From the NCBI GenBank assembly GCA_951406725.2, contig OX597826.1, positions 6,324,001 to 6,388,000 of the forward strand: a stretch of 64,000 nucleotides of DNA, written 5' to 3'. A program made the translations under genes and the position numbers. Below the pieces are notes generated by a model. The model did not search any database, had not been told where the DNA came from, and saw only the letters and a program-made list of their open reading frames with translations. Origin of the DNA: Octopus vulgaris. Its lineage: Eukaryota. This document shows, piece by piece, positions 2,373 to 60,460 of this stretch. Numbering within the stretch: position 1 is the first letter of the stretch; every line of letters begins with the position of its first letter.

Positions 2373-2874
2373 GATAGCGGTACAACAACGCACCAATATT
2401 TACTGGAAATTGCAGACGATAATATACGACGCTATAGTAAAAGCTTCACTGTATATATATTCTGGCAAAGACGTTGGCGGGTGGCGGACATAAAGAAATT
2501 CATCTTGCCTGTAGGAAAACATTAAATAAATGGGTAACCCCATGTGGATAATATAGGATCTAGATTTCGAACTTTCCAAATTACGTTTGTTAACGTAAAT
2601 TTGATTAGCTCTGTTCGGTTACATTCATTTTGACAAAGTTTCAAATGTCGCTACACGAATGCCAGTATTACACGTCTTAACGCCTAGTCGTTAACAGACC
2701 GAGAACAGTGAAAATGTTTTCACAGCAAAACATATTAAATAGTGCAATGTATTAGTATTGCTTCCCTGTAAAACAAAACACCATTATGTTAAAGTATAAA
2801 TATAGGATATTGGTACAACAATTCACTACATTACATAGTTTTTATATATTTTTTCATATATTCTATATTGTGTT

Positions 2875-2906
2875 TGTCGAGCGGTTTCGCTTTGCTAATC
2901 ATGACA
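2875..2906 (-). ncRNA. Minimal type-I hammerhead ribozyme motif, A3:U8 core variant
   Basis: Minus strand reads TGTC-ATGATTA-GC aaa GC-GAAA-CCGC-TC-GACA: stem I TGTC/GACA, core AUGAUUA, 2-bp stem II, GAAA, UC cleavage site. A second copy is at 11678-11710. Confidence 0.6.
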
Positions 2907-3066
2907 TTGAAATGTTTGTAATTTTATATTTTCTTAAGAAAATTTTAGTCCATGGTGTATGAATATATGATTTATGATTATGAATAAATGATTTAACAAG
3001 TACAAAAATGTAAGGGTAGGTAATTGGTAATATTTACTCTTGAAAACAAGGGAAGTAATTGTTTAA

Positions 3067-18659: not shown

Positions 18660-20097
18660 AACTTTCTTACTTTCCCGAACGTCAAACTGATACACCTGTT
18701 TGTTGTTCACACACCTATCTTCGTCTTTCGTTTTTCTGTAAATTTCAACTATATATTATACGCTCACGTGGTCACCCTAGTTTTATCCTCCTTTAACCTC
18801 CTACACTTTGGACTTACTATCTGAACTTTCTGCACCTATCCTCATCTACATACCAGAACACCCCCAGATTACCACTGGATAAAAAATGCCTCAACATCTT
18901 TCTGTTTTTTCTCACTCCGTACGCTGTTACTATACCTTTCTCCTTTTCTTCTTTTCATCTTCCTTTCTTCTCCTTACCTCTCTTTTCTTTCTTGTTATTT
19001 TCCTCTCTTCGCGACTTTTGAACTTTTCGAACTTTCTTTCTCTGTATGTTATCACGTTGTCTCTTTCTCTCCATTTCTTTTTTTTTTCTTCTTCTTTCTC
19101 CTTTTTCCAGCATGCCCGATTACAAATCCTTTCTTCTTCACCTTCACCACCGCCTAAAACACGACCTTTCCATGTTTCCTTTCCGCTGCTTTCAACCCTC
19201 TATTAATCTTAACCTACTGAATTAAAAAAAAGCACGCTTGTCTAGTCATGTTTCCTTTCTCAGTCGCTGCCCCCCCCCCGTCCAGCACATCTCCAAAGGT
19301 TTTCGCCTCCATTTCCACACCAATTTCCACTCTTTTTCTGCCATCCTACCCATACGCCGTACTACATCATATCGCCTGATACGTGACACATTCCACACTG
19401 CGCCTCATAATCCATTCAATTCATTTTTCCACGAGATCCTAGCTCGCAGTAAACAACATAACCTCCACTCACTATTTAATTCTCCCCCACTCGATTCCAT
19501 TACACCCCCTTCCCCATCCCCATCGCTCCCCGATACACTCCCTCCTCATCTGACACCTACTTTCTCCCATCAATCCTAACCATTTTCTCTCTTCATTGAT
19601 AATACCCCTCCCTCACACATCACCCTTACCACACACCTCTACTTTACACCCACATCCGCATTCCAAACAGCAATGCCTACCTCCACACCCTACCTCCACA
19701 TACCGAAACCCCACACCCCACTACTTCTCGCTCAATCACACCACATCACATCACTCCACACACACTAGCACTGACCACTTCCCAGCACCACACGTCGTCA
19801 TCCGCACACCCACACACCGTCATCCGCACACCCACACACCATTATCCACACAACCACACGTTACAGACGCACACGGACATTATCCACACACGCACGACAA
19901 ATTCATTAGCCTGTATCACAGGCACTTACACATTCTCACGTACAAACACATAGGCCCATCTAGTTTGGGGCTTACCAATACTTTATTATTTCCCCTTCTT
20001 TCAACCTTTCCTGTGAAAACTTTTCTTTCCAACCAGCTGCCATTCTTGACAGCTAAATCTACATTTTTTTTCATTCTCTCTGTTTATATTATCTTAT

Positions 20098-20136
20098 TCC
20101 TTTCCGTAGAAGAGCGTAGTCTAGAAACGTAAAGGA
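20098..20136 (+). ncRNA. Degenerate minimal hammerhead motif in pLTR 2
   Basis: TCCTTT-CCGTAGA-A-GAGC gtag TCTA-GAAAC-GTA-AAGGA, with palindromic ACGT in helix III. Confidence 0.4.
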
Positions 20137-22472: not shown

Positions 22473-22864
22473 GTAACCGTTGAATCAGCAAATAATATTA
22501 CTCAATCGAAAGAGATATATGTATAATTTGATGGATAAAGAAGTTGTTAATGAGGTACTTAAAGTTTGACACTCAGATGATACAGTATTCTGATGGAGTC
22601 TTACAACGCACTATGTACGAGGAGGCATCGTTGAAGTTCAAATGGCATGGGTACTCCTCGAGAAACAGAATAAATCATGATAAAAAATGGGAGGAAAGCG
22701 TTAAAGCAAAACTCAGATAAGAATTACGGAGATGTACTCGCATAGCAAGTAATTTGATCTGAGATCGTGTGCTGAAACGAAAACAATTGCAGCGTGGAAG
22801 GTGTTTATAAGCCATTTAAGAAACACACAAAAGCCGTTCGATTCACTCCAACATTTAAGTTTAA

Positions 22865-22914
22865 TTTGTCAAAATATTTTCGTCGCTAAAATCCGCGACC
22901 TGTTCACTGACAAA
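22865..22914 (-). ncRNA. Minimal type-I hammerhead motif, G3:C8 core (minus-strand copy)
   Basis: Mirror image of 22968-23017 within the palindrome. Confidence 0.65.
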
Positions 22915-22967
22915 GTCCGTGCTGCATCTAAGAAAGTAACTGTTACTTTCTTAGATGCAGCACGGAC

Positions 22968-23017
22968 TTTGTCAGTGAACAGGTCGCGGATTTTAGCGAC
23001 GAAAATATTTTGACAAA
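22968..23017 (+). ncRNA. Minimal type-I hammerhead motif, G3:C8 core
   Basis: TTTGTCA-GTGAACA-G-GTCGC ggatttta GCGAC-GAA-AATATT-T-TGACAAA: 7-bp stem I, core GUGAACA, 5-bp stem II, palindromic helix III AAUAUU. Predicted cleavage after 23010. Confidence 0.65.
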
Positions 23018-23466
23018 TTAAACTTAAATGTTGGAGTGAATCGAACGGCTTTTGTGTGTTTCTTAAATGGCTTATAAACACCTTCCATTCTGCAATTGTC
23101 AGATAAGAATGTTCTCCCTTTAATCTGTTACATGAATAATACAGTTTCAGATTTCAAGTATTCTACGACCTAATACGGATGTCCCTTTTTTCATCTACAT
23201 GAAGCCTGCGCTTGTCTGACCCAGTCATGTATAAACTAGAGCTCTTTTGGATCACGCATTTTATATTATCTGGTGTGTTGCTGATTTTTATGCTTTAGAT
23301 ATGGTCTGTTAAAAATGTTAAAATGTGCAGACTTTGCATAGCCGTTAACGCTGGCAATTTCCGTAAATGTAATATACACGTATTTATGAGTGCCTATATG
23401 CGTGTAATTATACAGGTATAATTATGCATATAAATAAATATCTATCTATCTATCTATCTATCTATA

Positions 23467-37783: not shown

Positions 37784-38349
37784 TTGGATAGTCCAGAAAG
37801 TTCGTGCCGAATTTTAAAGGAAAGAAAAAGGTCAATAAATACTTGCCATTACATTTTTAATCAATTAAATATGAACCATTTTGTTGCACATTGCGTCTCC
37901 ATCTTTCCTTTAATTTGAAAATACCCTCTTCCCAGAATTGCGGTGGTTTCATGGCAAAGAATTCATCAAGGTAATTTTTTACGTCATCCAAGGAATTGAA
38001 ATTTTTACCGCTAAGACTATTCTGCACAGACCTCAATAAGTGGAAATCCGAAGAAGCAATATCTGGTGAATATGGAGGGTGGAGTAACACATCCCAGCCG
38101 AGCTGCAGCAATTTTTGTCTGGTTCCCAAATCATTAGGTGCAGAAAACGAACTTTCTTATTTTCCATTTTAAAGGGTTACAGAATTAACACAGGTTATAG
38201 GAACATAAACCTTGTTCCACGAAAAGATAGCTTAAACTGTGCTCTAAATGGAGGTGTAGTCAAATCTTATTTTATGGACTCAACCATGTTCTAAAATAAG
38301 TCGCGAGATAAGCTACTATAAATCGGCACGAACTTTCCGGACAACCCAA
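37784..38349 (-). mobile_element. Internally deleted mariner transposon (566 bp)
   Basis: TIRs TTGGATAGTCCAGAAAGTTCGTGCCGA and (reverse complement) TTGGGTTGTCCGGAAAGTTCGTGCCGA, 3 mismatches in 27 bp. TA on both sides (37782-83, 38350-51). Confidence 0.95.
37857..38129 (-). pseudogene. Mariner transposase C-terminal fragment
   Basis: LGWDVLLHPPYSPDIASSDFHL carries the YSPDLAP(S)D motif, followed by FWEEGIFKLKERW...NGSY. The N-terminal two-thirds is deleted. Confidence 0.93.
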
Positions 38350-39445: not shown

Positions 39446-40477
39446 GTAGGTTGGTAGGTAGGTAGATATGTAGGTAGGTAGGTTGGTTGGTAGGTAAGTA
39501 GGTAGGCAGGTAGGTAGGTTGGTAGGTAGGTAAGTAGGTAGGTAGGTAGGTAGGTTGGTAGGTAGGTAGGTAGGTATGTATGTCGGTAGGTAGGTAGGTA
39601 GGTATGTATGTAGGTAGGTAGGTAGGTAGGTAAGAAGAAAAGGTAGGTAGGTAGGTAGGTAAGTAGGTAGGTAGGTAGTTAGGTAGGTTGGTAGGTAGGT
39701 AGGTAAGTAGGTAGGTAGGTAGGTTGGTAGGTAGGTAGGTATGTAGGTAGGTAGGTAGGTAGGTAGGTAGACGGTAGGTAGGTAGGTAGGTAGGTAGGTA
39801 GGTTGGTAGTTAGGTAGGTTGGTAGGTAGGTAGGTAGGTAAGTAGGACGGTAGGTAGGTATGTTGGTAGGCAGGTATGTAGATAGGACGGTAGGTAGGTT
39901 GGTAGGTAGGACGGTAGGTAGGTAGGTAGGTTGGTAGGTAGGTAGGTAGGTAGGTAGATAAGTAGGTAGGTAGGTAGGTAGGTTGGTAGGCAGGTAGGTT
40001 GGTAGATAGGTAGGTAGACGGTAGGTAGGTAGGTATGTAGGTAGGTAGATATGTTGGTAGGCAGGTAGGTACATAGGACGGTAGGTAAGTTGGTAGGTAG
40101 GTAGGACGGTAGGTAGGTAGGTAAGTAGGTAGGTAGGTAGGTGTAGGTAAGTAGGTATGTAGGTATGTAGGTAGGTAAGTAGGTAGGTAGGTAGGTAGGT
40201 TGGTATGTAGGTAGGTTGGTAGGTGGGTAGGTAGGTAGGTAGGACGGTAGGACGGTAGTAGGTAGGTAGGTAGGTATGTTGGAAGGAAGGTATGTAGATA
40301 GGACGGTAGGTAGGTTGGTAGGCAGGACGGCAGGCAGGCAGGCAGGTTGGTAGGTAGGTAGGCAGGCAGGCAAGCAGGCAAGCAGGCAGCCAGGCAGGCA
40401 GGCAGGCAGGCATGTAGGCAGGCAAGCAGGCAGGCAAGCAGGCAGGCAAGCAGGCAGGCAGGCAGGCAGGCAGGCAA

Positions 40478-40512
<35 letters not shown>

Positions 40513-40744
40513 ACGGCAGGCAGGCAGGCAGGCAGGCAGGTTGGCAGGCAGGCAGGCTGGTAGGCAGGCAGGCAGGCAAGCAGGACGGCAGGCAGGCAAG
40601 CAGGACGGCAGGCAGGCAGGCAGGCATGTTGGTAGGCAGGCAGGCAGACAGGACGGTAGGCAGGTTGGTAGTTAGGACGGCAGGCAGGCAGGCAGGTTGG
40701 CAGGCAGGCAGGCAGGCAAGCAGGCAGGCAAGCAGGCAGGCAAG

Positions 40745-40800
<56 letters not shown>

Positions 40801-40824
40801 TAGGCAGGCAAGCAGGCAGGCAAG

Positions 40825-40884
<60 letters not shown>

Positions 40885-41322
40885 TAGGTAGGTAGGTAGG
40901 TAGGTAGGTAGGACGGCAGGTAGGTAGGTAGGTAGGTAGGTTGGTAGGTAGGTAGGTTGGTAGGTAGGTAGGTAGGTAAGTAGGACGGTAGGTAGGTAAG
41001 TAGGACGGTAGGTAGGTAGGTAGGTATGTTGGTAGGCAGGTAGGTAGATAGGACGGTAGGTAGGTTGGTAGTTAGGACGGTAGGTAGGTAGGTAGGTTGG
41101 TAGGTAGGTAGGTAGGAATGTTGGTAGGCAGGTAGGTAGGTAGGACGGTAGGTAGGTTGGTGGGTAGGACGGTAGGTAGGTAAGTAGGACGGTAGGTAGG
41201 TAGGTAGGAATGTTGGTAGGTAGGTAGGTAGGTAGGACGGTAGGTAGGTTGGTAGGTAGGTAGGTAGGTAGGTAGGTAGGTAGGTAGGTAAGTATGTTGG
41301 TAGGCAGGTAAGTAGGTAGGAA
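39446..41322. repeat. 1.9-kb (GTAG)n/(GCAG)n tetranucleotide satellite with higher-order interruptions
   Basis: GTAG domains at 39446-40320 and 40884-41322 flank a GCAG domain at ~40322-40883. Recurrent interruptions are GACG, GTTG, GTAAG and ATGTTG. It explains the 428/337/306-aa ORFs. Confidence 0.97.
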
Positions 41323-55250: not shown

Positions 55251-55313
<63 letters not shown>

Positions 55314-55374
55314 TAATCTGTGTGTCTATCTAGCTGTATGTCTGGCTGGCTATCTATGTATCTATGTATCTATG

Positions 55375-56257
<883 letters not shown>

Positions 56258-56264
56258 ATATATA

Positions 56265-56297
<33 letters not shown>

Positions 56298-56374
56298 CTC
56301 TCTCTATCTATCTATCTGCCTGTCTATCTATTAATCTGTCTGTCTAGCTGTATGTCTGCCTGGCTATCTATGTG

Positions 56375-56451
<77 letters not shown>

Positions 56452-57200
56452 GAGTATGTGTAAAGGTTTGTATATATACATGTATTTGCGTAACTTATTG
56501 TATATATAAATCGTGCGTGTGTGTGTGTATTTTGTGTTAGGGTGTACACAGTCACACATATTTCTATACACGCGTATTCACTTATACATATACACGTATA
56601 CATATTTATATACAAAGCCTGTTTATGAAACAGGTCATGGCAATGTCAAATGTGAGTCAGAATATATTTACATTTGGTAGTTTGTGTGAACGTAGAGAAT
56701 GTTTCAAATACTTATATGCCATGATTGTGTTGGAAATACAGATAAACGCATCCCACTTGTGAGACACTACTAAGAAGCATGCTTTGTAATCCAAACAACG
56801 TGACTACTCATATCAATTTGCATGTTTACAGGTCTCCCGTTCGGTACTAATCAGGTAAATGCTTCCATAGGGGCAGTTATATCAACACTATTCAAACAAT
56901 GCTGACCACGGTAACATAACAACTGTAAAAAGGAACGCTATAAACAAACATGTTAAAACGTAGCCGTAGCTGTTGACATATGGTGGAGGTGGTGTGAGTG
57001 TACCATTTCAAATTACAATAGTCGGAAAGAGAGAATAGAATGAAAGAATGGTCGAATAATAGAACTGGTCACGGGGATTCCGCCTTTGTCTATATACAAC
57101 TGTATGCAAAGCATCGTGCGAGTGTATATCGAGCAATCTATGTGTGTATGTATGTATGTACGTAACTATGTAAGTATGTATGCATTTATCTATCTGTCTG

Positions 57201-57237
<37 letters not shown>

Positions 57238-57242
57238 ATTTA

Positions 57243-57503
<261 letters not shown>

Positions 57504-57715
57504 TATCTATATACCTATCTATCTGTCTATGAATCTACCTACCTGCTCTATCTTTTTTATCTGACTATCTATCTCGGTGTCTCTCTCTCTCTAAATGTAT
57601 TTTTGTGTGCGCACGTGTGTATGTGTGTGCGTGTGCGTGTGTCAGTGTATATTTACGTGTGGGTGCTGTTTTGTGTTTGTGTACCTGTATATTGTCCACG
57701 AATACACGTATGTAC

Positions 57716-59950: not shown

Positions 59951-60460
59951 TGAAAGAAGCCCGTCGTATATATTTATATATATATATGTGTGTGTGTGTA
60001 TATGTTTGTGTGCCTGTGTTTGTCCCCCTAGCATTGCTTGACAACCGATGCTGGTGTGTTTACGTCCCCGTCACTTAGCGGTTCGGCAAAAGATACCGAT
60101 AGAATAAGTACTGGACTTACAAAGAAAAAGTCCCGAGGTAGAGTTCCTCGATTATAGGCGGTGCTCCAGCATGGCCGCAGTCAAATGACTGAAACAAGTA
60201 AAAGAGTAAAAGAGTAAAGAGTAAAGGGTATATACGTGTGTGTGTGTGTGTTTGTGGGCCTGTGTTTGTCCCCCAACATCGCTTGACACCCGATGCTGGT
60301 GAGTTTACGTCCCCGTAACGTAGCGGGTCGGAAAAAGAGTTCGATAGAATAAGTACTAGGCTTACAAAGAATAAGACCTGGGGTACATTTGTTCGACTAA
60401 AGGCGATGCTCCAGCATGGCCACGCTCAAATTACTGAAATACATGAAAGAGTAAAAGAGT
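59951..60460 (+). mobile_element. SINE family A, 5'-truncated, followed by a second tandem 3' module
   Basis: 59951-60230 matches 20476-20736; 60236-60460 repeats the 3' module with a GTAAAAGA tail. Confidence 0.9.

Follow-up and report, generated by a model that had tools for sequence, protein, structure and literature searches.

The interrupted GTAG array and its twin blocks

The window, the whole stretch of 64,000 nucleotides that was analysed (G000:C13:6324001-6388000, G000 being a 2.8-Gb assembly), contains a tetranucleotide array in which one contiguous tract is written in a GCAG state. Its features, all given for the plus strand, are the following:

39446-41320, plus strand: interrupted (GTAG)n array of 1.87 kb with about 470 units and internal higher-order duplications, as read from the sequence
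40322-40884, plus strand: contiguous C tract (GCAG state), likely miscalled, equivalent to A>G on the C-rich minus strand
40512-40716, plus strand: C copy of a 205-base duplicated block, from a gap-free alignment
40912-41116, plus strand: T copy of the same 205-base block at an offset of 400, from the same gap-free alignment
40288-40372, plus strand: a further higher-order copy that holds the tract's left boundary, with 8 C-for-T differences to 39872-39956
39872-39956, plus strand: T-state partner of the left-edge copy at an offset of 416, from alignment

A sequence-only reading of this DNA had described 40521-40710 and 40921-41110 as copies that differ in one direction only. Realignment reproduced the offset of 400 with zero gaps, and 34 of 190 positions differ, each being C in the left and T in the right copy. 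The reported dependence on the 3' neighbour was likewise recovered, with changes at 33 of 38 TpA, 1 of 6 TpT and 0 of 6 TpG sites, as were the alterations inside interruption units (GTAA>GCAA, GTAT>GCAT, ATAG>ACAG and one GTTG>GCTG). When the pair is extended to 205 bases, it shows 35 differences, all C versus T; T sites are changed at 35 of 51 positions and other sites at 0 of 154 (Fisher p 2e-27), and the one-way direction of 35:0 has a p of 6e-11. A second one-way pair lies at the tract's left edge, where 8 of 8 differences are C versus T. The one-way difference is thus true in the assembly, far beyond chance. It may also be that two alleles were joined in tandem to give the C and T copies.

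The C tract measures 523-563 bases (563 for 40322-40884) and sits 876 bases from the left flank and 436 from the right. Between 40322 and 40884 it contains 116 GCA and 9 GTA; counted against all T remaining, 115 GCA stand beside 24 T, so that about 83% of the adenosines on the C-rich strand are changed. The core of the higher-order duplication has three occurrences, all in this array. At 40276-40295, one higher-order copy reads GGAAGGAAGG and its sister copies read GGTAGGCAGG, which may be a further consensus error.

Polarity and repeat register

The direction proposed in the sequence-only reading, T>C, was borne out: the T state came first. GTAG runs are usually interrupted by GTTG (98 among the 100 matches listed of 259 places), and inside a GCAG run this unit occurs in the assembly at this locus only (2 matches); at 5 other loci GCAG runs contain GCTG, and ordinary GCAG runs are without GTTG. 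The remaining higher-order copies in the array are all in the T state. The reverse course, in which C is ancestral and the flanks were converted by CpA>TpA, had been listed as an alternative and is now barely credible. It would account for the unchanged CpG of the GACG interruption, as methylation protection would give, but the tract contains the GTTG typical of GTAG arrays, the copy cut by its edge has its nearest match in the T state, and its sister copies are in the T state as well.

The gap-free alignment also upholds the description of a base-level, single-strand change under which the interruption map is preserved, and with it the exclusion of slippage: run lengths and interruptions are kept, and bases are altered inside interruption units. 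Because slippage cannot preserve run lengths while altering interruptions, what remains is a base-specific process acting on one strand or a base-specific misreading. An ordinary compound microsatellite, in which the GCAG unit spread by slippage, is accordingly very improbable. Such arrays consist of the same two units, and (GTAG)5(GCAG)5 junctions are common in the assembly (30 and 20 places, 50 matches in all); yet they are short, their longest C stretch being 60 bases, and none has a T twin with the same interruption map. Here the map is preserved over 205 bases, which is not what slippage in a compound microsatellite yields, and ordinary GCAG runs have GCTG, never GTTG.

The resemblance to the sequence preference of ADAR fared less well. 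On the C-rich strand, adenosines with a 5' U are changed at 34 of 39 sites and those with A or C together at 1 of 12, an order that agrees with U>A>C>G; the tract is without any site having a 5' G. This pattern is indistinguishable from the register of the repeat. Only register position 2 changes, and the GTAA, GTAT, ATAG and TTAG interruptions retain their other letters. Since TpA always lies at unit position 2, the ADAR context and the repeat register coincide, and an enzyme cannot be named from the context alone.

Specificity for register position 2 would suit a mismatch-specific enzyme as well as it suits ADAR. A real tract might accordingly have arisen by repair or by a polymerase, either through T.G wobbles in out-of-register (CTGC)n annealing that were repaired to C:G or through an error-prone polymerase that inserted G opposite T. 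TpG, the context that T.G glycosylases favour, is never changed here, and 90% at one site class with error-free copying elsewhere would not be the work of polymerase eta or iota. With the evidence for artefact in the same assembly (below) added, we give this route only a slim chance, and real processes other than deamination are, even taken together, quite improbable.

Comparable tracts and telomere-type arrays

Of 20 regions that were fetched for their GTTG-interrupted runs of GTAG, L120 (G000:C3:176124500-176130500) alone has such a tract: 495-541 bases in the C state (2477-3017) in the middle of a GTAG array of 2.5 kb. The core of that tract is without any remaining T, and a noisy stretch follows it. 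The tract in the window is cleaner, with 205 bases free of indels and 6 of 7 TT sites kept. Where GAAG precedes it, GTTG survives at 0 of 5 places in the L120 tract, which show GCAG or GCG in its stead, versus 29 of 33 places in the flanks (p 2.5e-4). Since this loss requires T>A or a deletion, it lies beyond what a deaminase can do, and a caller locked onto the wrong unit could produce it.

More than 430 bases separate each of the two tracts from unique flanking DNA. Of the 4 arrays that measure at least 1.3 kb, 2 contain a long C stretch, this locus being one of them, versus 0 of 33 arrays below 1 kb, where the longest is 60 bases; these are pattern-selected loci from which two duplicate rows of this locus were dropped. 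The other long arrays, L115 (1.9 kb) and L121 (1.3 kb), have no C tract. No sibling tract was found in 75 fetched loci, some of them overlapping, and no twin pair at 18 loci with ATTG in ACAG runs. At 5 loci with long GCAG runs (from 100 matches listed of 508, overlapping) and 2 with GCAA, none of the runs is a central tract. In a search for paralogous one-way pairs, of the kind that the sequence-only reading had called for, 3 of 289 informative pairs in 364 kb scanned are one-way, and two of these are the pairs at this locus. The third was rejected as a false positive, namely a dispersed repeat whose tail is (TA)n in one copy and (TA)n(TG)n in the other.

Two of the fetched arrays deserve separate mention. 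A perfect, uninterrupted 1.13-kb run of 282 GCAG units (L164:1449-2580, on G000:C2 at about 57.626 Mb) may be a locked basecall. At L073:1304-1628, a short ACAG stretch lies in an ATAG array with its ATTG, ATTA and TTAG interruptions kept.

The start of C13, the chromosome that contains the window, consists of about 1,140 bases of (CCTGG)n followed by about 300 bases of (CCCTAA)n adjoining unique DNA (C13:1-1440). Its first 2 kb contain 210 CCTGG and 11 CCCTGG versus 29 CCCTAA-type tokens. Of the 18 contig ends that were fetched, no other carries a long telomere array. On C6, a telomere-type array contains 2,237 units, 370 of them of CCAG type, with many indels. Both arrays agree with the C tract in polarity and in context (A>G after T, C-rich strand), and both are uncorrected errors of the same class elsewhere in the assembly. 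As in CCCTAA>CCCTGG, the purine swap in the window runs in one direction on the C-rich strand.

The C6 array is about 14.5 kb long and lies in mid-chromosome (about 61.476-61.490 Mb; L183:2751-10000 and L184:1-7400). It switches from (CCCTAA)n to (TTAGGG)n at L183:5020, has CCAGG and CTAGG units mixed in, and ends at a gap of 100 N. A misjoin or a fold-back read is a possible origin of its position.

These patterns have a published counterpart. Tan et al. (2022; PMC9414165) report that (CCCTAA)n, when the C-rich strand is read by nanopore and only then, is called as (CCCTGG)n, an error described there as absent from HiFi reads. Table S1 of that paper includes CTAC/CTGC repeat pairs as current look-alikes among the 18 entries listed of 63 CTAC places: CCTACT/CCTGCT (r 0.997), AACTAC/AACTGC (0.996), ACTACG/ACTGCG (0.996), AGCTAC/AGCTGC (0.995) and ATCTAC/ATCTGC (0.994). 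The table covers 6-mer repeats, and the 4-mer pair (CTAC)n/(CTGC)n falls outside its range. The C tract and the telomere miscall have in common A>G after T on the C-rich strand and a block-wise swap to a unit of presumably similar current, and the telomere form itself occurs in this assembly; the cases differ in that ours is an interrupted 4-base microsatellite seen in a consensus, whereas the published one was seen in single reads. A further report (10.64898/2026.02.11.705409) describes strand-specific nanopore miscalls that persist into assemblies, with 44 and 14 cases.

Because the telomere of the same chromosome shows the published miscall pattern, the C tract is likely a sequencing error. 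We infer from its error patterns that the assembly is a nanopore consensus, and the tract is probably a strand-specific nanopore miscall, CTAC called as CTGC, that was left in it; the difference between the twin blocks is then likely absent from the animal's DNA. The sequence-only reading had mentioned a basecalling artefact among its alternatives, and the telomere-type arrays and L120 now lend this direct support from within the same assembly.

The course of events would be as follows. Underlying the tract would be interrupted (GTAG)n DNA that recently underwent an internal duplication, and reads of its C-rich strand would likely have been called CTGC in place of CTAC. A and G after T would yield nearly equal current in (CTAC)n, and the caller may lock onto the wrong unit and recover only beside some interruptions. 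In the tract, T is kept in 4 of 6 units directly after GTTG or GCTG versus 4 of 99 after plain units. For one block, about 0.5 kb long and far inside the array, the consensus step would then have followed the miscalled reads, and short reads with their anchor in flanking DNA would not have mended the error there. The default window of Racon is 500 bases. Consensus building in non-overlapping windows has been described as a general method (PMC5411768).

Read as a miscall, the tract means that strand-specific A>G errors in the long repeats of this assembly closely mimic an ADAR signature, so that accurate reads are needed before the assembly is scanned for editing that has passed into DNA. It would also extend this class of miscall from telomeres to (CTAC)n microsatellites.

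Possible adenosine deamination and independent contigs

There is a small chance that the C tract is real and is the heritable footprint of adenosine deamination on chromosomal DNA, by one of two routes. More than 100 GTAG units would then have become GCAG in one stroke with the interruption map intact, and a contig of an independent run (X4, below) would represent another allele, whose tract ends elsewhere.

The first route, which we hold to be improbable, acts in place: (GCAG)n RNA would pair in register with the C-rich DNA strand, ADAR would deaminate each dA facing C, and replication would fix A>G. This would explain why a single strand and a single tract are affected, with run lengths preserved and conversion near complete, and (GCAG)n donors are present in the assembly. 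Shiromoto et al. (2021; PMC7955049) report that in slipped telomeric hybrids ADAR1p110 edits the DNA strand where A is mismatched with C, and propose that replication would yield TCAGGG units. The identical base would be changed in their system (on the C-rich strand TA>TG, seen as TAG>CAG on the G-rich one), and the map would likewise stay; there, editing was shown in vitro and in cancer cells, whereas here the change is one in the letters of an assembly. Moreover, that report demonstrates editing of DNA in vitro and puts forward its fixation as a proposal. In the window, solely adenosines facing the variant C change, a rule that the L120 tract breaks with interruption changes impossible for a deaminase. 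Miscalls of the same polarity exist in the assembly, no transcript was found at the locus, and the route would need a hybrid with one mismatch in four across 0.5 kb, formed in the germ line.

The second route is that of the sequence-only reading, in which a (CUAC)n transcript, once hyper-edited, was copied back by reverse transcription or served as a repair template. In its favour are the restriction to A>G changes, clustered on one strand (35 of 35 and 8 of 8 differences), the ranking of 5' neighbours, with U ahead of A and C combined, which agrees with the preference of ADAR for U>A>C>G (PMC11276115, with neighbour preferences also given in PMC5625713), and reverse-transcriptase-like ORF fragments seen by inspection in the flanking 300 kb (40 listed of 376 ORFs). 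The nearest inverted (CTAC)n, within 364 kb scanned, is about 77 kb away and about 75 bases long. ADAR on perfect duplexes reaches roughly half of the adenosines, and the conversion of about 83% on the C-rich strand exceeds this. Dense one-strand A>G clusters in repeats are also the mark of RNA hyper-editing as described by Porath et al. (2017; PMC5625713); that, though, is a phenomenon of RNA for which an inverted partner was sought within 2 kb, and here none lies within about 77 kb. The route further requires extra steps, its context is confounded with the repeat register, and the evidence for artefact weighs against it. The edited transcript is therefore no longer the leading explanation, and we rate it as distinctly improbable.

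Runs of RNA type that bear the label of the best-matching run contain 0.02-0.05 of the locus words; such small shares, in RNA and metagenome runs alike, do not count as evidence. The masked strand skew around the locus is flat and shows no direction of transcription, and Pfam gave zero matches above the curated cut-off for the 150 of 172 filtered window ORFs that were searched. In the lack of a near inverted partner, of a gene and of a transcript, and with about 83% conversion, editing at A-C mismatches would fit better than editing of paired RNA. A literature search limited in its terms found no case of an inherited ADAR change in DNA. If true, the tract would be a natural germ-line case of the fixation so far only proposed for telomere repeats; the chemistry of RNA editing would have altered inherited chromosomal DNA, a new route for converting one satellite unit into another.

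Independent sequencing runs bear on whether the C state exists. Five runs contain at least half of the sampled words, all of them as contigs. The best run has a word share of 0.62, and the flanks alone account for 0.55 of the distinct words, so that these shares are uninformative on the C words. Four runs (of 24 listed) were aligned to 40580-40700, and records at least 99% like the C copy numbered 0 of 266 in X1, 0 of 388 in X2, 0 of 257 in X5 and 0 of 451 in X4. The comparison covered about 80% of X1 and about 76% of X5, and contigs drop variants, so that a missing C contig in X1, X2 and X5 does not amount to absence. Several pieces carry the exact difference counts of the T-type unit at 41102, and none carries the count of the T copy itself (both among 32 pieces listed of 1,368).

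One record across the four runs, in X4, is 95-99% like the C copy. Record 22 of X4 (200 letters, depth 30.7) aligns as two pieces; 13 letters differ over 40610-40692, and 0 over 40614-40688. Two stretches compete for it:

40614-40688, plus strand: 75 bases with 0 differences to X4 record 22, doubtful as proof of the C state
41013-41220, plus strand: T-state stretch that fits X4 record 22 in length (208 minus 8 = 200), in the joint letters and at both ends

Taken literally, the record would make 75 bases of the C copy real DNA, which would favour deamination in place; we find this doubtful. The record continues with letters and a unit that are found after the T copy, unlike the C copy, and its final letter is left unaligned where the reference has C, as expected if the contig has T. 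Its right end lies one base before the column at which two T-type copies diverge, and its first 31-mer ends at the column at which GTAG- and GTAT-type T copies diverge, although in the assembly these copies already differ at 2 of the 30 letters before that column. As length, both ends and neighbour fit the T copy, the record was dropped as proof of a real C copy. Assigning it to the T copy requires that the 0 of the second piece be an uncounted value. The independent contigs appear to lean to the T state.

Several other features were observed in the window. At 18700-20100 the plus strand is C-rich and G-poor (GC skew -0.52), with short repeats of 13 and 22 bases. Overlapping frames on opposite strands at 22753-23153 encode the same peptide, which points to a long palindrome. 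On the minus strand, 37860-38156 encodes a fragment without a Pfam match that has the motif HPPYSPD, which we take to be that of a mariner-type transposase. Three (TATC)n arrays at 55253-57570 stand beside repeated element ends with AATAAA that resemble retroelement tails, and the arrays at 55.3 and 56.3 kb have in common an interrupted segment with TCTG units. At 59983-60460, a 245-base unit of a dispersed repeat forms a tandem pair.
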